From assembly GCA_951812955.1 (NCBI GenBank), contig OX638340.1, positions 3,616,001 to 3,680,000 on the forward strand: 64,000 nt of DNA. Reading direction: 5' to 3'. A model generated the notes under the pieces. It worked only from the letters and a program-made list of their open reading frames with translations. It had not been told where the DNA came from and did no database searches. Made by a program: the position numbers and the translations under genes. Shown piece by piece: positions 1,183-59,092 of the stretch. The DNA comes from an uncultured Gemmatimonadota bacterium (lineage in GTDB: Bacteria; JAAXHH01). Within the stretch, counting starts at the first letter, position 1. Each line of letters opens with the position of its first letter.

Positions 1183-1653
1183 ATGGAAGGCGGCGGCAGC
1201 GAAGGCTCCTGGCTCAACACGCTCATGGGACAGAACGTTCGGGTTATGACGCCGGGATCCGCCACGGAGGATCGCGTGACGGTCATCGAGGCCGTCGAGC
1301 CGCCCCACAGCTCGCCGCCCGTCTTCACCCGCCACGCCTTCATCGAGATGTTCCTGGTCGTCAGAGGTGCCCTGACGTTTCAGTTTCTACACGAAAGCGC
1401 CTTTGTGATCGAAGCTGGCCAGATGGTGACCGTACCCGGCTACCGGCCCCATTCCTTCTGGAACGAGGGGGACGACCCGGCGGCGGTCATGCTGATCTGC
1501 ACGCCCGCGGGGTTGGACCGGTTCTTCGAGGCTTCCGATCGGCTGCTTCGGCGCATGCCGCCGGACACGACCGATCCCGATGAGTTGAAAGCGGAGATGG
1601 CACGCCTTCGGAAGGAGTTCGGGCTGGAACACGTGGCGCCGGCGCCGCGGTGA
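1183..1653 (+). CDS. Cupin-domain protein (small single-cupin barrel)
   Basis: 156-aa ORF with strong RBS; sequence resembles the cupin_2 fold (…EMFLVVRGALTFQF…GQMVTVPGYRPHSFWNEGDDPAAVMLICTP…). Confidence 0.75.
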   Translation: MEGGGSEGSWLNTLMGQNVRVMTPGSATEDRVTVIEAVEPPHSSPPVFTRHAFIEMFLVVRGALTFQFLHESAFVIEAGQMVTVPGYRPHSFWNEGDDPAAVMLICTPAGLDRFFEASDRLLRRMPPDTTDPDELKAEMARLRKEFGLEHVAPAPR

Positions 1654-24216: not shown

Positions 24217-24368
24217 GTACTACCCTCATAAACTCACCAGAACACAGGATCGCGGAACCGTAAATGAAGCCCTGATATCGAAACCGTAAAAGAACGTCTG
24301 ACGAAAGTTCGCAATCATCCGAAACGGAAGCGAGACGCAATCATCCGAAACGGAAGCGAGACGCAACC

Positions 24369-25733
24369 ATGGCCACGAAATCCGGACGCCCCAATCTCCT
24401 GTTTATCATGGACGACCAGCACCGGCACGACTACCTGTCCGCGGCGGGAGCGACCTTCGTGCGCACGCCGAACCTGGACTGTTTGGCGGAACGCGGGGTC
24501 CGATTCAGCCAGTGCATAACCAACGCCCCGGTCTGCGCGCCCGCGCGCATCGGCCTGGCCAGCGGCTACCAGCCCGCGCGGCTGGGGTGCCTGGACAACA
24601 ACTGCTACCTGCCCCGCCATATCACGCCCTATTACGTCCGGCTTCGGGACGCGGGATACCGGGTCGGGTGCGTGGGGAAACTCGACCTGGCCAAGCCGGA
24701 TCCCTACAACGGCCGCCACGGCGACCGAGCCCGGGTGTTCGGTTGGGGTTTCACCCATCCCGTGGAATGCGAAGGCAAGATGCACGCGGGCATGGCGGAC
24801 CAGCCGCGGGGACCTTATGGATTCTGGCTTCAGGAGCAGGGACTCTTCGAACGCTTCCGGACGGATTACGCGGCCCGGGGAGCGCGGGGCTGGATCGAGG
24901 GTGCTTCCCATGATTCTATATTGCCTGAGGACGCTTTCGAGGATGCCTACATTGGCCGCCGCGCCGTGGAATGGATGGACACCGTCCCCGACGATTACCC
25001 GTGGCATCTCTTCGTCAGCTTCGTGGGGCCGCACGATCCCTTCGATCCGCCTACGTCATACGCGGAACGATACCGGGGCGCTGCCGTGCCGCCGGCAATA
25101 CGAAGCAACGAAGAGGGGAAGCCGTCCTGGGTCAACGCCCGTCGGCGCGACCTGTCCGAAGATGAAGTGGCAGTTACGCGCCGGCAGTATTGCGCGGTCA
25201 TCGAACTGATCGACGACCAGGTAGGCCGGATCATCGAAGCCGTAGAACGGCGGGGCATGGCGGAGGATACCATCGTCGTGTTCGCCAGCGACCACGGCGA
25301 AATGCTGGGCGACCATGGCCTGTACACCAAATCCGTTCCCTACGAGGTGGCCCTGCGCGTGCCGCTCATTGCCGCTGGACCAGGCATAGCGGGAGGGCGT
25401 ACTTCCGACGCCCTCGTGGAACTGATCGACGTCAATCCGACCCTGTGCGGTCTGGCGGGTCTGCCCGCCCAGGAAGGGCTCGACGCCAGCGACTTCAGCG
25501 CCGTGCTCACCGGGGATCGTTCGACCCACCGCGAGGAAGCGGCCAGCGCGCTTCGCGAATTCCGGCTCGTACGCACGGCGGATCACAAGCTTGTGGTGCA
25601 CCACACGGGTGAAACGGAGCTATACGACCTGAAAAACGATCCTGAAGAGCTTGAAAACGTGGCGGCCGATCGGCCCGATGCGGTCAACGCGCTGCGAAGG
25701 CGTCTGCAGCGGCGATTTCACTTCCCGCCCTAA
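24369..25733 (+). CDS. Sulfatase (formylglycine-dependent, Cys-type), no signal peptide
   Basis: 454 aa; NLLFIMDDQHR…NAPVCAPARIGLASG (C-x-P-x-R motif), followed by a typical sulfatase core. Confidence 0.85.
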   Translation: MATKSGRPNLLFIMDDQHRHDYLSAAGATFVRTPNLDCLAERGVRFSQCITNAPVCAPARIGLASGYQPARLGCLDNNCYLPRHITPYYVRLRDAGYRVGCVGKLDLAKPDPYNGRHGDRARVFGWGFTHPVECEGKMHAGMADQPRGPYGFWLQEQGLFERFRTDYAARGARGWIEGASHDSILPEDAFEDAYIGRRAVEWMDTVPDDYPWHLFVSFVGPHDPFDPPTSYAERYRGAAVPPAIRSNEEGKPSWVNARRRDLSEDEVAVTRRQYCAVIELIDDQVGRIIEAVERRGMAEDTIVVFASDHGEMLGDHGLYTKSVPYEVALRVPLIAAGPGIAGGRTSDALVELIDVNPTLCGLAGLPAQEGLDASDFSAVLTGDRSTHREEAASALREFRLVRTADHKLVVHHTGETELYDLKNDPEELENVAADRPDAVNALRRRLQRRFHFPP

Positions 25734-30797: not shown

Positions 30798-32717
30798 TTA
30801 TGCCCTCCGGACCGTGCGCTGCCGTCTCCCGAAAGTAGGTTTCGGCGCCTGAGTTTGCGATTCGGACCCGCTTTGGGTATTCGAACCTTCGTCCCGGGAA
30901 TCCGAGCTTGTCTCCGATTGAATGGATGGTTCGTTCACGGCTTCGGGCTTGTCTCCGGCAGCCTTCGCGGTCCTGGATCCGGGCTTGTCTCCGGCAGCCT
31001 TCCTGGTCCTGGATCCGGGCTTGTTTCCGGCAGCCTTCCTGGTCCTGGATCTGGGCTTGTTTACGGTCGCCTTCACGTCCTTGGTCTCGGGTTCATCTCC
31101 GGCAGCCTTTGCGTCCTTAGCCTCGGGCTCGTTTTCGGCAATCTTCACGGCCTTGGTCTCGGGTTCATCTCCGGCAGCCTTTGCGTCCTTGGCCTCGGGC
31201 TCATTTCCGGCAGCCTTCGCGGTCTTGGTTTCGGACTCATTTCCGGCAGTCTTAGCGGTCTTGGTTTCAGACTCATTGGCCACCGCGGTCTCACCGCCGG
31301 ATTCCTCGGCGGTTTCAGCAATGACTGGTTGCGTTTCCACAGTTTCCGGCGAATCGTCCTTTTTCGGTGCAGCATCCTTGCCTCTTCGGGTTCTGCCGGT
31401 CCTGCTCCCTTGACCGTTACCTCTGGAGGCGCGGCTTTTCTTACCGTCGCCTTTTTCCCCGGCCGCGGATGTGTCGCGGTCGCTTCCATCATCGGGCGTG
31501 AGGGCTTTCTCTTCCTGCTGTACGGTTTCATCCTGCGTGTTCGTTTCGTCGGCCGCGGAGGAAGGTGCACCGTTCGTCTGCTGTCGCGTGCCGCGCCGGC
31601 CTCCTGACTGTCGGGGCTTGCCCGATGAGCGCTTTGAACGGCTCGTGCCGGATCTCGCGGATGAACGGGAAGCGGACGGTTTCGCTTCGGCCGCCACCGT
31701 CTCGTCGCCGGTGTCTCCGTTGGCCGCGGGGGGCAGGGAACGGAAGTTGAGCCGGCCGGAAGCGGTCGGCACGGATTTAAGCTTGTTGATCAGTCGCTTC
31801 GGAAAGACCATGCGGGCCGTGATCAGCGGATTCCCCCACTGGCTGACGCGGAGTCCGCCCCCCAGGCTGACCAGGGCGTAGGCCGTATCGTAATCCAGTC
31901 CCTTGTCCTGCGAGATCCATTTCACCATCTCGGTGATCGCCAGTCTGGCAGCCTGGTCGACCGAGGACGCGGAAGTAATGGTGACCCATTCGCCCTTCGA
32001 TTCGACCCGGGGCCAGGAAAACCGGCCGCCGGGTTGCGTGTCCACCCGGAGCGTGACCTCGGCCGCGACTTCCACGCCCGATCCGGAAATCTGTCCGTCG
32101 CCCATGCAGGCCTTTACATCGCCCAGCGACAGCAGGGCGCCGTTGACCTGGACGGGAAGGTAGACCCTGGACCCGGTCGTGATCTCCAATGTGTCCATGT
32201 TGCCGCCGTGTCTGCCGGGGTAGACGGTTTCGATCTCCCCGTGCTTCGTGGCCACGCCAAGGACGCCGATCACCGGGCGCACCGGAAGGGCAAGCCGGTC
32301 GTCCAGCTTGACTTGATTGTCGTCTACTTCCAGGACACGTACATTGTGATTCTGGATGTCCTGCCCGGGGACGCCCGCTTCCGAACGGACGGCGAACACG
32401 CCGGTATCCGACGTTTTGATCTCCTTCACCTGAATGGAAAGCACGTCGCCGATATGGGCTTCTTCTATGCATATGGGACCGGATACGGGAATACCGTCGG
32501 ACTTGTCAACGTCACCATGGGTTCGGGGTTCTTCCGTAAGGAGACCCCGGAAACAGTCCTGTGTTTCCACGACGACGGTCTCACCGCGGTTCACAGTAAT
32601 GGCGGGTGAGACGTTCGGGCCGAATACCTGGTGTAACTGGTCTCTGGTTACCCGTCTGGTCAGGACTGCTTGCTCGTTCTTGGACGTCCGCGACGTCCTG
32701 GATGATCTGCGAAACAA
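30798..32717 (-). CDS. Acetamidase/formamidase (FmdA/AmdA) family enzyme fused to a ~330-aa low-complexity Lys/Ala/Glu/Thr-rich repetitive C-terminal tail
   Basis: N-terminal 300 aa: …VVETQDCFRG…GPICIEEAHIGDVLSI…GGNMDTLEITTGSRVYLPV…SLGDVKACMGDGQISGSGVE. C-terminal tail carries tandem repeats (…PETKAVKIAENEPEAKDAKAAGDEPETK…; …KPGSRTRKAAGDKPGSRTAKAAGDKPEA…). Confidence 0.7.
   Translation of the reverse strand: MFRRSSRTSRTSKNEQAVLTRRVTRDQLHQVFGPNVSPAITVNRGETVVVETQDCFRGLLTEEPRTHGDVDKSDGIPVSGPICIEEAHIGDVLSIQVKEIKTSDTGVFAVRSEAGVPGQDIQNHNVRVLEVDDNQVKLDDRLALPVRPVIGVLGVATKHGEIETVYPGRHGGNMDTLEITTGSRVYLPVQVNGALLSLGDVKACMGDGQISGSGVEVAAEVTLRVDTQPGGRFSWPRVESKGEWVTITSASSVDQAARLAITEMVKWISQDKGLDYDTAYALVSLGGGLRVSQWGNPLITARMVFPKRLINKLKSVPTASGRLNFRSLPPAANGDTGDETVAAEAKPSASRSSARSGTSRSKRSSGKPRQSGGRRGTRQQTNGAPSSAADETNTQDETVQQEEKALTPDDGSDRDTSAAGEKGDGKKSRASRGNGQGSRTGRTRRGKDAAPKKDDSPETVETQPVIAETAEESGGETAVANESETKTAKTAGNESETKTAKAAGNEPEAKDAKAAGDEPETKAVKIAENEPEAKDAKAAGDEPETKDVKATVNKPRSRTRKAAGNKPGSRTRKAAGDKPGSRTAKAAGDKPEAVNEPSIQSETSSDSRDEGSNTQSGSESQTQAPKPTFGRRQRTVRRA
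30944..31270. repeat. Imperfect 33-36 bp in-frame tandem repeats (~9 units) encoding the repetitive tail of the acetamidase gene
   Basis: Repeats of gggcttgtctccggcagccttcctggtcctggatcc and related gggttcatctccggcagcctttgcgtccttggcctc units. Confidence 0.7.
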
Positions 32718-47375: not shown

Positions 47376-48209
47376 ATGCCCATTACCGACGCCCTGCCCG
47401 ATATGAAGCGGGAACTTCGTTTTTTTCCGGCAAGATCCGAAAATCCGAAAGCGCTTTCCCGTGAACAGATCGACTTCTTCAACACGAACGGGTATCTGTG
47501 CCCCCTCGATGTATTTACGCCGCGGGAAGCCGAAGCGAACCGCCTGTATTTCGAGGACCTGATGGCCCGTGCAGAGAAGGAAGGGTACAACAGCTACTCC
47601 ATCAACGGCTGGCATCGGCATTGCGAGGGCATCTACAACCTGGCCATGAACGAGAGGATTCTGGACTACGCGGAGGACCTGGTCGGCGAGACGTTGATCT
47701 GCGAGATGACCCACTATTTCTGCAAGATGCCGGGCGACGTGCAGCGGGTGAGCTGGCACCAGGACGCCTCCTACTGGCCTCTGACCCCGAGCAAAGTGGT
47801 GACGATCTGGCTGGCCATAGACGACGTGGACGGGGAAAACGGACCCATGACGGTCATCCCCGGTTCACACCTTCACGGACAAATCCCCTTCGAGAACAGC
47901 ACGAAAGCCGAACGCAACGTGCTGGGACAGTCCGTCCACGACCCGCTCAGGTGGGGTGGCGATCCCGTGCCCTTTACCATGAAGGCGGGCCAGATCTCCA
48001 TGCACACCGACCTGCTGCTGCACGGTTCCGAGCCGAATGTTTCCGACCGCCGCCGCTGCGGACTGACGATACGGTATCTGCCGCCGGACGTCCGGGGCCG
48101 CTACCCGGAATACCACAGGGCCATCATCTGCCGAGGCAGCGATCCCTCGGGTTATTGGAGACCCATACCCCGCCCGACGGGCGACCAGATTCCTCCACGC
48201 AATCGCTAG
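47376..48209 (+). CDS. PhyH-family dioxygenase (paralog 9)
   Basis: 277 aa; …VSWHQDASYWPL… HxD and …GSHLHG…. Confidence 0.8.
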   Translation: MPITDALPDMKRELRFFPARSENPKALSREQIDFFNTNGYLCPLDVFTPREAEANRLYFEDLMARAEKEGYNSYSINGWHRHCEGIYNLAMNERILDYAEDLVGETLICEMTHYFCKMPGDVQRVSWHQDASYWPLTPSKVVTIWLAIDDVDGENGPMTVIPGSHLHGQIPFENSTKAERNVLGQSVHDPLRWGGDPVPFTMKAGQISMHTDLLLHGSEPNVSDRRRCGLTIRYLPPDVRGRYPEYHRAIICRGSDPSGYWRPIPRPTGDQIPPRNR

Positions 48210-48297
48210 TATCTACATTGTATCGACGGCGCATTGTCGGTATCTACGGCAAGAGTGGTATCAACGCCGCAATTGTGGTATCTACGGCGCAATAGTA
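48209..48297. repeat. Array of 4 degenerate ~20-bp direct repeats (GTATCTACGGCGCAATTGTG-like) in the convergent intergenic region
   Basis: gtatctacattgtatcgacggcgcattgtcg / gtatctacggcaagagtg / gtatcaacgccgcaattgtg / gtatctacggcgcaatagta, contiguous with no spacers. Confidence 0.55.
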
Positions 48298-48335: not shown

Positions 48336-49229
48336 CTATGCCGAAAGCGGCCTGCAGTTTTTACACGGCCGGCATCCGCCGTTCGTTGCGTCCTCCGTAC
48401 TGCTGAATTCAAGGCGGTGCTCCCGCTTGATGCGCCGCGCATCACGGCAGGTGGGGTAACAGTAAATTCCTGTAGTTCGGCTTCCGATGTAGCGTACACC
48501 CCGCTGCTTCCAATTAGCGAGATCTTCCCTCGGTATTCCTTCCCGTTCCAGCAGCGTCCATTTCATTTCCGGACCGTAGTAGTAGTTTCCCACGCCCCCG
48601 GTCGAGGGTACAAGCCGGTGGCAGGGCACCAGGAAGGGAACGGGATTCCGGGCCATGACCGTTCCAACGGCACGGACCGCCTTCGGTCTGCCCACCTCCC
48701 GGGCCAGCCAGGCATAGGGACGGACCTCTCCAGACGGTATCCTGGCCAGGTGTACCAGCACGGTCTGTTCGAATTCGGTAAGTCCCTCAAGGGTAACCGG
48801 TGGCTGAGCGATCTTTTCTCCTCTTATGGCCCGTCTGACTGCCAGGGCGTAGGTTTCCGGCAAGGAACCACGTACTACGGAACGCCCGAGCCTGTCTTTG
48901 TAAAATGACTCGAAGGCGCCGTCCTCCGCCACGTCGAGTTTAACCGCGGATATGCCCTTTGGCGTGAAACCTACGTGCGCCGGCCCGAAATCCGTGTCGA
49001 TGACATCGTACCGATCTGCAATCCTGATCATAACTTCCTCCATGAGCCCCGCGGGGGCGGTCAGTATCAGTTTGGGAGATGCCGCTGCGAGATGCCCCAT
49101 GAATGCGGCCTCTTCGCGGCATGCGGCACACACTTCCAGGTGTTCCACCACGGCCCGGCTCGCCTTATCGTACGCCTCGCCGGTTCTGATTTGATCCAGT
49201 TGCTGTCTTGCTTCGTTACAGTCCACTGG
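48336..49229 (-). CDS. Anti-sigma factor fusion: N-terminal zinc-binding (ZAS / zf-HC2) anti-sigma domain, complete O6-alkylguanine-DNA alkyltransferase (MGMT; N- and C-domains, PCHRL active site), and C-terminal Ada-type Cys4 zinc domain
   Basis: ZAS motif …VDCNEARQQLD…HLEVCAACREE (C…H-x3-C-x2-C). MGMT C-domain LTEFEQTVLVHLARIPSGEVRPYAWLAREVGRPKAVRAVGTVMARNPVPFLVPCHRLV…GNYYYG. C-terminus IYCYPTCRDARRIKREHRLEFSSTEDATNGGCRPCKNCRP matches my recollection of the Ada N-terminal metal-binding consensus. Start is probably GTG ~49229, overlapping the sigma-factor stop (ORF track opens at 49328). Confidence 0.7.
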   Translation of the reverse strand, partial: PVDCNEARQQLDQIRTGEAYDKASRAVVEHLEVCAACREEAAFMGHLAAASPKLILTAPAGLMEEVMIRIADRYDVIDTDFGPAHVGFTPKGISAVKLDVAEDGAFESFYKDRLGRSVVRGSLPETYALAVRRAIRGEKIAQPPVTLEGLTEFEQTVLVHLARIPSGEVRPYAWLAREVGRPKAVRAVGTVMARNPVPFLVPCHRLVPSTGGVGNYYYGPEMKWTLLEREGIPREDLANWKQRGVRYIGSRTTGIYCYPTCRDARRIKREHRLEFSSTEDATNGGCRPCKNCRPLSA

Positions 49230-49770
49230 GGTCGTCCTCCATGATTTTGCGAAGTCTGCGTAGCGCCCGGTACACCTTGCCCCGCAGCGCCGATTCCGAC
49301 GAACCGGTGACTGCCGCGATATCCGCATAGGTGTATTGCTCGATGAATCGCAGAATGATCAATTCCCGGCTTTCTCTGCCCAGTCTTTCGAGAGCCTTCC
49401 GGATCGCCCTGGCCTGGTCGTTTTGGGGGACGAAGGCCTGCTCTTGAAGGTCGTCCTTCATCCGCTCTACCGCGCCTGTCATGCGTTTGCGCGACCTCAG
49501 CCTGTTCAACGCCAGGTTCCGCACGATGCGGTACAGCCAGGGACGGATTTCGAGCGTCCGGCACCGCTCCGAGTCGTACTTACCGGAGAGTGTTTCGTAG
49601 GCCTTGACAAAGGCTTCCTGCGTAACGTCGAGGGCATCGTCCGAACCACCGAGCATGTGGAAGGCGTAGGTGAAGAGTCTGTCCTTGTATGCCGCCACCA
49701 GGTTTGCCACCGCGCCTCTGTTGCCGCGATGGATTTCCAGCGCGATGCATCGTCCCTCTTCCTGCGTCAT
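49216..49770 (-). CDS. ECF-subfamily RNA polymerase sigma-70 factor
   Basis: 184 aa. Region 2 …DALDVTQEAFVKAY… and region 4 …YTYADIAAVTGSSESALRGKVYRALRRLR… are present. It overlaps the downstream anti-sigma gene. Confidence 0.85.
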   Translation of the reverse strand: MTQEEGRCIALEIHRGNRGAVANLVAAYKDRLFTYAFHMLGGSDDALDVTQEAFVKAYETLSGKYDSERCRTLEIRPWLYRIVRNLALNRLRSRKRMTGAVERMKDDLQEQAFVPQNDQARAIRKALERLGRESRELIILRFIEQYTYADIAAVTGSSESALRGKVYRALRRLRKIMEDDPSGL

Positions 49771-49972
49771 GCAAAGTCCTTTGTTGTCCTGACTACCGTC
49801 CCAGTCACAGATAAAACACCGTCGAGGCGGATTACGTTCGGATCAAAACGAATTCGAGTATCCTTCTTGACAGCTTCTTTGCTGTTTCTTTCCTTACCAA
49901 TAAGATCCTTGTTTTCTTATCTTACTGCACATCAGTCGCAATTCGGCGAAATTCATTGTCCCATCTACGCCA

Positions 49973-50170
49973 ATGCCTCGAAAAGTCAGAGAGCTGATTA
50001 AGGATTTGGTAGATGCGGGATTTGTTGAAACAGGTGGGAAAGGCAGCCATAGGAAATTCACACATGTACGAGTATCGAAAATCGTGGTCCTATCTGGCCA
50101 CCTTGGAGACGATTCGAAAAGCTATCAGGAACAGGCCATTAACGTAGCAATCAAGGAGTCACAGAAATGA
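49973..50170 (+). CDS. hicA: HicA-family toxin (type II TA; mRNA interferase)
   Basis: 65 aa; MPRKVRELIKDLVDAGFVETGGKGSHRKFTH…VVLSGHLGDD matches HicA/YcfA-like. In a low-GC patch. Confidence 0.75.
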   Translation: MPRKVRELIKDLVDAGFVETGGKGSHRKFTHVRVSKIVVLSGHLGDDSKSYQEQAINVAIKESQK

Positions 50171-50406
50171 AGACGAGTGCTCAATATGTGAAGATAGTGG
50201 AATGGTCAGAAGAGGATCAGTGTTTCGTCGGCAGCTGTCCCGGCCTGCTCTACGGTGGGTGTCATGGTGATAACGAACAGGAAGTGTTCTCCGAGTTATG
50301 CCGGATCGTAGAGGAAACCATAAATTTGTATAGACGAGACGGCCGGTCCCTTCCTTCACCGACATCGGGAAAAGACTACGCCAATAAAATGCTGGATATC
50401 GTCTGA
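50167..50406 (+). CDS. hicB: HicB-family antitoxin
   Basis: 79 aa; MKTSAQYVKIVEWSEEDQCFVGSCPGLLYGGCHGDNEQEVFSELCRIVEE matches the HicB RNase H-like N-domain. Overlaps the hicA stop by 4 nt. Confidence 0.75.
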   Translation: MKTSAQYVKIVEWSEEDQCFVGSCPGLLYGGCHGDNEQEVFSELCRIVEETINLYRRDGRSLPSPTSGKDYANKMLDIV

Positions 50407-56018: not shown

Positions 56019-56088
56019 CGTCTCAGGTGGACATCGCGGCAAGCCGCCTGCATGCGTCTGTCTCAGGTGGACATCGCGGCAAGCCGCC
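56019..56088. repeat. Two copies of a 28-30 bp direct repeat (tctcaggtggacatcgcggcaagccgcc) separated by 12 bp
   Basis: Copy 2 (56061-56088) contains the last 8 codons and the stop of the minus-strand kinase-like gene; copy 1 (56021-56048) lies just downstream and duplicates them. Confidence 0.7.
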
Positions 56089-56725
56089 GGAGCGCGTCGG
56101 GCGCTCGTCCAGTTTCAATATGCCTCAGGATCATGCCGCCACCAGTTTCGGCGCTCATTTCGGATGTATCGATCTCGAGGTCATAGATGCCGGGTTTATG
56201 TACTTCCCGGTCCCAGATCCGTACGAGATCCGGGACAGGCGCGTCGGCCGGTATATCCTCTCCCCTGTGCCAGGTTTCCCTGCGGCGTCGCCACACTTCG
56301 TCAACCGGGCACCGCACGCCTACGAAATACACCCGCAGTCCGTTCAGCCGCTTCGCGCAGTCGTAGAGGATACCGCTCACGGTAGCGTAATCATCATGAT
56401 GCGCGACGTCAGAAACCACGTTCAGGCCCTTGCGAAGCTGGACTGCGATGGAATCGTAGAGCGCTTCGTACATGTTGGGTATCAACGGTTCGAGGTCGGG
56501 CCGTTCGCCGCCTGGCCGGTTCACGATAGCGGCGGGCCGCAGCCCGATCCCTGGGCGAAACCGCGGCGGCGTGATATCTATGAATCGATCGGCGCCGAGG
56601 TTCATCCATGGCTCCCGCGACATCTGCTGGATGGCGGACGCGATACTGGATTTCCCGGATCTGGGCGCTCCGTTGAGTATCACGGCTGTGCCTTGTACGG
56701 TCGTGGAATCAGGCAAGGCGCTCAT
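56063..56725 (-). CDS. P-loop kinase-like protein, chloramphenicol phosphotransferase (Cpt)-like / zeta-toxin-like fold
   Basis: Walker A VILNGAPRSGKSSIA close to the N-terminus, as in Cpt-family proteins. Start chosen at MSALPDSTTVQG; upstream in-frame M codons extend to 56902. Confidence 0.55.
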   Translation of the reverse strand: MSALPDSTTVQGTAVILNGAPRSGKSSIASAIQQMSREPWMNLGADRFIDITPPRFRPGIGLRPAAIVNRPGGERPDLEPLIPNMYEALYDSIAVQLRKGLNVVSDVAHHDDYATVSGILYDCAKRLNGLRVYFVGVRCPVDEVWRRRRETWHRGEDIPADAPVPDLVRIWDREVHKPGIYDLEIDTSEMSAETGGGMILRHIETGRAPDALRRLAAMST

Positions 56726-58283: not shown

Positions 58284-59092
58284 GCGGGTTTTCCTGGGTC
58301 GTTCGGGGAAGATGGCTCGCGCGGGGCGGACGGGGCGCGCGGGGCGGACGGGGCGCGCGGGGCGGACGGGGCGGCCGCCCGCATCTTCCGCGCCTGGTAC
58401 CGGCGCGCCAGGTAAACCGGCAGGTACACCGCGAAGAACATGACAAGCGCCACGGCGTCGAGGATGGGGATGTACCACGGCCACGGCGCGAAGAAGAAAG
58501 GCGACACCGTACCCCAGGGCGGCTTCGAGAGGTACATGTAGTTCGACCCCAGGAGCAGATTGACGATACCCACGGCCATGGCGAATACATTCAGGGCTAT
58601 AAAGGCGCGAAAGAGTCCGGCCAGCGTGGGCCGCATGCCCAGGCCCCAGGTGGCGTAAAGGACGCCCACCACGATACCGGAGTGGACGATGAAGTACTGG
58701 AAGAAACGCCACGAAGGGAAACCGGCATCCATGGCACCCGGCGTGATCACGGCGTTGGCGGAACCGACCAGGCCCCAGAAGTAGGCGATCTCGTAGGTCC
58801 GCCGGCTGCGGAACAACAGGGTAGCGGCCGTGACCAGATTCGCGACACCGCAGATATGCAGCGGCAGGTGATTCCGTATGAAGTAGTCCAGGCCGAACTG
58901 CAGGAGGCGCTGTCCCCCGGCCGAGACTTCATTGATCAACAGCATGGCGGCGAGCAGGTAGCCGATGGCGGCGGCCACACGGCCGTCCGGGTTTCTTCGC
59001 GCCAACTTAGATAGCACGACGGCGAAGATCAGGGTCAGGCCCATCACCACGAGGTGCGGGGTCCCGAATGTCTGGAATTGGGATGGGTTCAT
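58280..59092 (-). CDS. Polytopic membrane protein (YwaF-like / TMEM164-like intramembrane family) with (APSAPR)n C-terminal tail
   Basis: Start MNPSQFQTFGTPHLVVMGLTLIFAVVL…, ~7 TM segments. C-terminal …AAAPSAPRAPSAPRAPSAPREPSSP is encoded by 18-bp repeats. Confidence 0.6.
   Translation of the reverse strand: MNPSQFQTFGTPHLVVMGLTLIFAVVLSKLARRNPDGRVAAAIGYLLAAMLLINEVSAGGQRLLQFGLDYFIRNHLPLHICGVANLVTAATLLFRSRRTYEIAYFWGLVGSANAVITPGAMDAGFPSWRFFQYFIVHSGIVVGVLYATWGLGMRPTLAGLFRAFIALNVFAMAVGIVNLLLGSNYMYLSKPPWGTVSPFFFAPWPWYIPILDAVALVMFFAVYLPVYLARRYQARKMRAAAPSAPRAPSAPRAPSAPREPSSPNDPGKPA
58318..58371. repeat. Perfect 18-bp tandem repeat x3 (cgcgcggggcggacgggg)
   Basis: Encodes the APRAPS repeats at the 3' end of the minus-strand membrane protein gene. 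Confidence 0.8.

Follow-up and report, generated by a model that had tools for sequence, protein, structure and literature searches.

An uncultured Gemmatimonadota bacterium (assembly GCA_951812955.1) carries, in the 64,000-nucleotide (nt) stretch of DNA analyzed here (contig OX638340.1, positions 3,616,001 to 3,680,000; hereafter "the window"), two overlapping reverse-strand genes, one for an ECF sigma factor and one for a 296-amino acid (aa) protein that combines a ZAS-type anti-sigma domain, a complete MGMT alkyltransferase, and an Ada-type Cys4 zinc domain. This set of domains had been proposed in an earlier note on the same DNA, and Pfam searches, family profiles, Foldseek comparisons, and an alignment to the anti-sigma factor RsiW now support each of its components.

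An operon for a sigma factor and a fused alkyltransferase

The two genes, and the domains and motifs within the larger one, are laid out as follows:

49216-49770, reverse strand: ECF (group IV) sigma factor gene, 184 aa
48336-49226, reverse strand: fused anti-sigma/alkyltransferase/Ada-Zn gene, 296 aa, GTG start at 49226
49020-49226, reverse strand: class-I anti-sigma domain, residues 1-69, four helices (model, Foldseek, and profile)
49218-49220, reverse strand: ZAS ligand C3
49119-49142, reverse strand: ZAS ligands H29-x3-C33-x2-C36
48792-49019, reverse strand: MGMT N-terminal (ribonuclease-like) domain, residues ~70-145 (profile and Foldseek to 1sfe)
48534-48779, reverse strand: MGMT C-terminal DNA-binding/active-site domain, residues 150-231 (Pfam DNA_binding_1)
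48615-48626, reverse strand: PCHR motif with acceptor Cys202
48348-48500, reverse strand: N-Ada-type Cys4 zinc domain, residues 243-293, with C256, C260, C288, and C291 (Pfam Ada_Zn_binding)

At 184 aa, the sigma factor has the size expected of an ECF protein (about 180-200 aa) and consists of the sigma-2 and sigma-4 domains only. It matches Pfam Sigma70_r2 (7e-14), Sigma70_r4_2 (1e-11), and Sigma70_ECF, scores 83.8 bits with the TIGR02937 sigma70-ECF model (cut-off 42.9 bits), and has Bacillus subtilis SigW as its closest solved structure (5wuq_A, E = 4.8e-16). ECF membership is further consistent with a co-transcribed regulator and with a bipartite promoter bearing an AAC -35 element, the latter predicted from sequence. 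The 296-aa gene starts at the GTG at 49226, with GGAGGA 8 nt upstream, and overlaps the end of the sigma gene by 11 nt (sigma stop codon TAA, 49216-49218). An ATG at 49328, the first in-frame start in the open reading frame listing, was considered and rejected because all homologues begin with M-x-C at the position of the window GTG. Most homologues have the same 11-nt sigma/anti-sigma overlap, and this conservation implies translational coupling of the two genes, as the earlier note had stated.

To characterize the 296-aa protein, we relied on an alignment of 80 homologues (45–92% identical to the window protein), from which residue conservation, a family profile, and an AlphaFold2 model were derived. 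In this model, the N-terminal domain forms four helices (residues 3-15, 20-32, 34-53, and 61-69), and a Foldseek comparison against the PDB pairs it with RsiW in the zinc-bound SigW–RsiW complex (5wuq_D; TM 0.75, root-mean-square deviation 2.0 Å, 65 columns). The family profile likewise matches RsiW (5wuq_C) over residues 4-69 (E = 1.4e-4). In a pairwise alignment with RsiW, C3, H29, C33, and C36 pair with the C...H-x3-C-x2-C residues, while the helix-IV segment APAGLMEEVMIRI pairs with RsiW APADFTANVMAKL. Among the homologues, C33 is invariant and C3, H29, and C36 are at least 90% conserved; the Pfam zf-HC2 model matches 60 of the 80 family members at E up to 0.01 (best 2.9e-9), and the TIGR03988 RsrA model matches the window protein at E = 0.007, below the model cut-off. 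For the sigma factor and the anti-sigma domain alike, the best solved relative comes from a single complex, 5wuq, with SigW and RsiW as its respective chains.

The alkyltransferase portion was identified through its C-terminal domain, with a Pfam DNA_binding_1 match over residues 151-231 (1.1e-25) that covers the full model length (1-81 of 81) and a TIGR00589 score of 85.8 bits (cut-off 46.4 bits). Pfam Methyltransf_1N has no match in the window protein; nevertheless, both MGMT domains are present, since the family profile matches 1sfe, the structure of E. coli Ada-C, over residues 69-230 (chain residues 13-175, E = 5.6e-28), and Foldseek also aligns 166 columns to this structure (TM 0.79). 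The C-terminal zinc domain matches Pfam Ada_Zn_binding over residues 243-293 (8.3e-10; 39 bits, cut-off 23 bits), displays a Cys4 site of the form C-x3-C...C-x2-C set in the TTGIxC/RPC motifs, and is matched by the family profile (residues 248-294) to the N-Ada structures 1adn, 1wpk, 1zgw, and 1u8b (E = 5e-10 to 1.3e-9). Foldseek aligns it to methylated N-Ada (1wpk) over 51 columns with 43% identity. Hence the "PCHRL" and "CYPTC...CRPCKNCRP" strings had been read correctly, and the domain assignments suggested earlier for profile testing held in part: DNA_binding_1 and Ada_Zn_binding match the window protein, while zf-HC2 and the MGMT N-domain model miss it and zf-HC2 is found in relatives only.

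Residue conservation extends across all three modules. P201, C202, H203, and R204 are invariant in the 80 homologues, as are Y171, R185, N194, and E229, which we take to have catalytic roles by analogy with known O6-alkylguanine-DNA alkyltransferases (AGTs), and the four Ada ligands C256, C260, C288, and C291. Overall, conservation of the nine ligand or acceptor residues of the protein is either complete or at least 90%, in line with the cysteine conservation expected by the earlier note. Because these residues are conserved, the protein is very probably a competent alkyltransferase with a competent Ada-type zinc site, rather than a degenerate relic resembling alkyltransferase-like (ATL) proteins.

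The AlphaFold2 model is a continuous chain (mean pLDDT 92.1, pTM 0.75) in which helix IV runs straight into the MGMT N-domain, followed by the MGMT C-domain, a linker helix, and the small zinc-domain fold. Pfam detected no HTH_AraC, HTH_18, or other DNA-binding output domain, and the chain ends 3 residues past the zinc domain. A database search for the same architecture, as had been recommended, returned more than 100 protein clusters of 285-303 aa with the same collinear order, from independent assemblies and several phyla; the closest relatives are metagenome-assembled genomes of Gemmatimonadetes, and the closest homologue, 92% identical, is labeled "Gemmatimonadetes bacterium". The alternative that separate anti-sigma and ogt/ada genes were merged by a frameshift or an assembly error is excluded by this recurrence in independent assemblies, with the continuous, confidently modeled chain (pLDDT 92) also standing against it; we consider its probability negligible, and the fusion is genuine, as originally proposed. 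The ZAS-bearing form is a modest-sized family: it comprises more than 100 clusters at 90% identity, and a phmmer search with residues 1-150 against 1.84 billion 50%-identity representatives yielded 48 matches at E up to 1e-3.

Sigma gene pairing and a conserved promoter

Next, we evaluated how consistently the alkyltransferase fusion is associated with sigma genes. To that end, 166 related loci were gathered from genomes and metagenomes, 105 of which (window included) have the MGMT-then-Ada-Zn order, and pairing was counted for the 73 of these loci whose upstream sequence extends for ≥650 nt. In 73 of 73 cases, locus L161 included, the gene directly upstream, on the same strand, encodes an ECF sigma factor. 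By comparison, the 60 classical Ada/Ogt loci are all devoid of a neighboring ECF sigma gene, and a single one has an unrelated sigma-like open reading frame about 4 kb away.

The family divides into two subfamilies. Subfamily A, which includes the window protein, contains proteins of ~285-303 aa from Gemmatimonadota, Acidobacteriota, and Chloroflexia with the motif C-x26-H-x3-C-x2-C. Subfamily B proteins are ~250-280 aa long and found in Acidimicrobiia, Actinomadura, Spirillospora, Pseudonocardiaceae, Limnocylindrales, and Rubrobacter:

Loci L010-L026 and L115-L166: subfamily B operons
L170, 7334-8702: subfamily B operon of the Rubrobacter radiotolerans plasmid NZ_CP007516.1

Proteins of subfamily B are without anti-sigma helices 1-2 and all zinc ligands, with helix IV and the last part of helix 3 as the sole anti-sigma elements ahead of the MGMT N-domain, yet they keep the MGMT and Ada-Zn domains and the sigma pairing, usually through an ATGA overlap. 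Since the ZAS ligands were lost while the pairing was kept, the ZAS zinc finger is unlikely to be a universal trigger, and its zinc site is probably not the essential sensor. The alkyl acceptor is instead the module always conserved with the sigma gene, a pattern that points to the alkyl-acceptor domains as the sensor. Cultured carriers of the short form include Rubrobacter radiotolerans, Actinomadura, and Spirillospora; in R. radiotolerans, the two genes reside on plasmid 2 and are annotated "RNA polymerase sigma factor" and "methylated-DNA--[protein]-cysteine S-methyltransferase".

The region upstream of the sigma gene contains a candidate promoter:

49815-49840, reverse strand: putative autoregulatory ECF promoter CGAACGTAATCCGCCTCGACGGTGTT (-35 element CGAACG, 49835-49840; -10 element GTGTT, 49815-49819; 16-nt spacer after GAAC)

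The corresponding motif, CGAACG-N15-G(T/G)GTT (i.e., GAAC, an invariant 16-nt spacer, and G(T/G)GTT), was detected in the sequence preceding the sigma gene in 26 of 27 non-identical cases from subfamily A, against a mean of 0.03 matches in shuffled sequences. It is located 34-104 nt before the sigma start codon and is kept across Gemmatimonadota, Acidobacteriota, and Chloroflexota. In subfamily B, 35 of 45 regions contain a related motif (TGCAAC-N16-G(G/T)GTT), for the most part ~10 nt ahead of the start, and Rubrobacter displays the variant GTGAAAC-N16-GTGTTG. A conserved ECF-type promoter ahead of the sigma gene is what one usually sees in ECF operons under their own control, and autoregulation is therefore probable here.

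Other sites of this kind are rare in the sequences scanned. With a position weight matrix (PWM), the operon site scores 28.9 bits in the 64-kb window and is the only match at 11 bits or more, the next best reaching 8.5 bits. Across ~1 Mb of related loci, the only site of ≥14 bits outside sigma upstream regions is a weak one (14.0 bits) inside a gene in L004/L005, and the Rubrobacter variant does not occur elsewhere on the 150-kb R. radiotolerans plasmid. An exact CGAACG-N15-GKGTT match at 1216-1241 (reverse strand) was rejected as a promoter: it lies antisense within an open reading frame (1183-1653, forward strand), scores 7.9 bits with the PWM, and compares with 0.10 matches expected per window. 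This match is probably due to chance, although it could be an antisense promoter. Overall, the conserved unit is the two-gene operon together with its promoter. Genes downstream of the anti-sigma gene are heterogeneous across loci save in one Acidobacteriota clade, in which the gene immediately after the anti-sigma/MGMT gene, or overlapping its end, encodes a SpoIIE/PP2C phosphatase:

L103, 3964-4716 (also in L009, L097, L099, L105, L108, L109, L113, and L134): SpoIIE/PP2C phosphatase gene (PF07228, 1.5e-42)

This arrangement may point to a further level of regulation in these bacteria.

A putative alkylation-damage switch and its alternatives

On balance, and with slightly better than even confidence, we interpret the operon as an alkylation-damage switch, i.e., a cognate ECF sigma/anti-sigma pair whose anti-sigma member doubles as a suicide DNA-repair protein. 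As long as cells are not stressed, the four-helix domain at the N-terminus of this protein would keep the sigma factor inactive. Once DNA is methylated, the same chain would irreversibly accept a methyl group on Cys256 (from methylphosphotriesters) and/or Cys202 (from O6-methylguanine or O4-methylthymine), and the alkylated protein would let go of the sigma factor, possibly because its conformation or charge changes, because it stays on the DNA, or because it is destabilized and proteolyzed, a fate known for alkylated AGT. The freed sigma factor would then transcribe its own operon from the CGAACG-N15-GTGTT promoter, supplying more sigma factor and fresh, unalkylated repair protein, and the response would shut off when undamaged anti-sigma factor again exceeded the lesion load. 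In this form, the system would be an Ada adaptive response in which the AraC helix-turn-helix output has been swapped for a sigma/anti-sigma module, which appears to be the most economical and best-supported reading of the locus. It builds on domain anatomy, residue conservation, strict gene pairing, and a conserved promoter, all established computationally, and the proposed wiring of Ada chemistry to a sigma factor is strengthened by the conserved autoregulatory promoter combined with the absence of an AraC domain by Pfam. Between the two candidate triggers, Cys256 is favored because the C-terminal Ada-Zn arrangement occurs exclusively with sigma genes, while Cys202 is kept in play because ECF122, an ECF group discussed below, has an MGMT without Ada-Zn and because alkylated AGT is destabilized (review PMC10779285).

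We also tentatively suggest that the protein may act as a single-use, stoichiometric lesion counter, although we rate this as somewhat less than an even prospect. Each methyl removed would irreversibly inactivate one anti-sigma molecule and free one sigma factor, the operon itself would be the main or only target, and the circuit would behave as a homeostat of unspent repair protein. A self-replenishing loop, as in the switch proposed above, fits the promoter scans: only the operon's own promoter matches in the window, the ~1 Mb of flanks, and the 150-kb plasmid.

Several observations weigh against the alkylation-damage switch. The Pfam zf-HC2 model (PF13490) does not match the window protein at E up to 1, and its single-sequence match to RsiW is weak (E = 0.15). 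The N-terminus of subfamily B is too short for a full anti-sigma domain, and pairing alone is no proof of sequestration. Known alkylation-repair genes (alkA, alkB, and aidB) do not accompany the operon consistently. That the protein binds the sigma factor, accepts methyl groups, and lets go of the factor once alkylated is inferred, as is the choice of trigger cysteine; the signal could be something other than alkylation, and the operon may be one of many sigma targets, the scans having covered the window, ~1 Mb of loci, and one plasmid.

Two alternatives draw on some of these points. The fusion may not sense alkylation at all, with the protein acting as an anti-sigma factor, or as a mere co-transcribed partner, whose release depends on a different input (e.g., regulated proteolysis or partner switching), and with the fusion serving stoichiometric co-production of a repair enzyme or its tethering to the transcription machinery. 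The SpoIIE/PP2C phosphatase encoded directly downstream in the Acidobacteriota clade, a protein type typical of partner-switching circuits, would fit this explanation, as would the lack of a full anti-sigma domain in subfamily B and the fact that the ECF re-classification saw no recognizable anti-sigma factor for ECF122 and ECF203. However, the phosphatase is clade-specific and the other downstream genes are heterogeneous, and it is hard to see, without a signaling role, why the acceptor cysteines of both repair modules would be invariant and why an Ada sensor domain would be present without an output domain. Tethering to RNA polymerase in particular conflicts with the structures of class-I anti-sigma domains, which occlude core-binding surfaces (RseA, ChrR, and RsiW complexes). 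We therefore consider this explanation unlikely.

A thiol or redox sensor similar to RsrA, in which oxidants, or soft electrophiles that react with the protein directly, would attack the ZAS zinc site and the MGMT and Ada domains would be co-made repair cargo without a signaling role, appears less likely still. In its favor, the C...H-x3-C-x2-C residues of subfamily A, with conservation from at least 90% up to invariance, align with the RsiW zinc ligands, and RsrA and similar ZAS anti-sigma factors are established redox sensors. Many ZAS-motif anti-sigma factors, RsiW among them, are nevertheless not redox sensors, and subfamily B, including R. radiotolerans, is without the ZAS ligands and helices 1-2 while keeping the pairing, the overlap, and the promoter. 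A redox sensor would also leave unexplained why the C-terminal Ada-Zn arrangement occurs only beside sigma genes.

If the alkylation-damage switch is correct, DNA damage would be sensed by an ECF sigma system via a suicide repair reaction, joining the Ada methyl switch to anti-sigma sequestration in a combination without experimental description. The annotation of these proteins, currently named only "methylated-DNA--[protein]-cysteine S-methyltransferase", would be corrected, and ECF122 and ECF203, currently assigned an "unknown mechanism, no anti-sigma factor", would gain a concrete, testable mechanism. The lesion-counter version would additionally define a new class of ECF input, namely covalent self-modification by a DNA lesion, and an independent way of achieving an Ada adaptive response without AraC, and it would explain the "orphan" groups ECF122 and ECF203. 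A switch of this type could also provide synthetic biology with a compact, orthogonal, alkylation-inducible set of sigma factor, anti-sigma factor, and promoter. Experiments on the short form could make use of its carriers in culture, namely Rubrobacter radiotolerans, Actinomadura, and Spirillospora.

Neighboring genes and comparison with known systems

The operon is flanked by a convergent and a divergent gene, with a repeat array at the convergent junction:

47376-48209, forward strand: PhyH-family dioxygenase gene, convergent with the operon
48220-48293: tandem repeat in the 126-nt gap between the convergent genes (period ~20, 3.8 copies, consensus GTATCTACGGCGCAATTGTG)
49973-50170, forward strand: HicA-toxin gene, divergent from the sigma promoter (PF07927, 6e-10)

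PhyH-family (phytanoyl-CoA dioxygenase-like) paralogues are unusually dense around the operon, with 4-5 genes in 17 kb (Gemmatimonadota loci L167 and L169). The convergent copy was considered as an AlkB-like partner of the operon and rejected, given this abundance of paralogues, its convergent orientation, and its absence in other lineages. The HicA gene overlaps a 79-aa open reading frame without Pfam match, the pair spanning 49973-50406 (forward strand); this frame is kept at the same position in relatives L167 and L169 and presumably encodes a HicB-like antitoxin. The repeat array at the convergent junction, which the earlier note had described as iteron-like (48209-48297), is a genuine tandem repeat, but its identity as an iteron was rejected: no replication gene is nearby, and the array varies in copy number, with ~5 units in a 91% identical relative (L167) and none in relatives of 84% (L168) and 76% (L169) identity, in which only the core GATACAATGTAGATAC and a 15-nt intergenic gap are found. 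Because it is absent from the latter two, we regard the repeat as unrelated to the sigma/anti-sigma system. Other tandem repeats in the window are located at 30943-31277 (36-nt unit × 9.3), 58304-58374, 24310-24370, and 56020-56098.

Among characterized systems, the closest in chemistry are E. coli Ada and B. subtilis AdaA/AdaB. Like these, the window protein has an N-Ada Cys4 domain with all four ligands and a complete MGMT with PCHR, and the systems would further share irreversible self-methylation of a stoichiometric sensor, as proposed here, and positive autoregulation, as predicted here. Cys256 is the proposed counterpart of Ada Cys38, which takes methyl groups from methylphosphotriesters. 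The domain order is however reversed, with MGMT preceding Ada-Zn, and there is no AraC-type helix-turn-helix. Whereas methylated Ada gains promoter affinity, the output here would be release of an ECF sigma factor, i.e., de-repression through lost binding. Given the missing helix-turn-helix, the reversed order, and a score far below the cut-off of the NCBIfam Ada equivalog (99 vs. 345 bits), the protein is not an Ada orthologue.

On the regulatory side, the operon resembles RsiW–SigW of B. subtilis and RsrA–SigR, with which it shares a four-helix anti-sigma domain containing C...H-x3-C-x2-C, co-transcribed and overlapping genes, and a (here putative) autoregulated promoter with an AAC -35 element. 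Unlike RsiW, which has a transmembrane and an extracytoplasmic part, the 296-aa protein is cytoplasmic, and unlike RsrA, which is a free-standing anti-sigma domain, its anti-sigma domain continues without linker into a DNA-repair enzyme. The presumed input also differs, being alkyl transfer from DNA here, proteolysis for RsiW, and disulfide formation for RsrA.

In terms of gene neighborhood, the nearest precedents are the ECF groups ECF122 and ECF203, in which an MGMT gene occupies position +1 of the ECF gene, with Ada_Zn_binding also in the context of ECF203 (Casas-Pastor et al. 2021, NAR; bioRxiv 10.1101/2019.12.11.873521, supplementary files 4 and 6). Both groups are 100% Actinobacteria and were described without an anti-sigma factor (Casas-Pastor et al. 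2021; bioRxiv 10.1101/2019.12.11.873521), and a 2022 review lists them under "unknown mechanism" (PMC8999054). ECF122 includes ~1200 members, with MGMT without Ada-Zn and a predicted promoter CTCAC-Xn-CGTCTAC (bioRxiv 10.1101/2019.12.11.873521). The idea is less unprecedented than the earlier note had implied. Beyond this ECF122/ECF203 listing, a literature search on anti-sigma/alkyltransferase, methylphosphotriester, and zf-HC2 with Ada_Zn_binding retrieved no description or test of such a fusion from the library searched, and the anti-sigma/MGMT/Ada fusion is absent from a 2023 review of alkyltransferase fusions. The window operon shares with both groups the MGMT gene at +1 and, with ECF203, Ada_Zn_binding. 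It differs in that its family occurs in Gemmatimonadota, Acidobacteriota, and Chloroflexota and has a recognizable ZAS anti-sigma domain fused to MGMT; from ECF122 it is set apart by taxon and by its promoter, CGAACG-N15-GTGTT. Subfamily B (Acidimicrobiia, Actinomadura, Spirillospora, and Rubrobacter) probably corresponds to ECF203. Overall, the architecture is real, conserved, and mechanistically suggestive, within an ECF–MGMT pairing that has already been catalogued.

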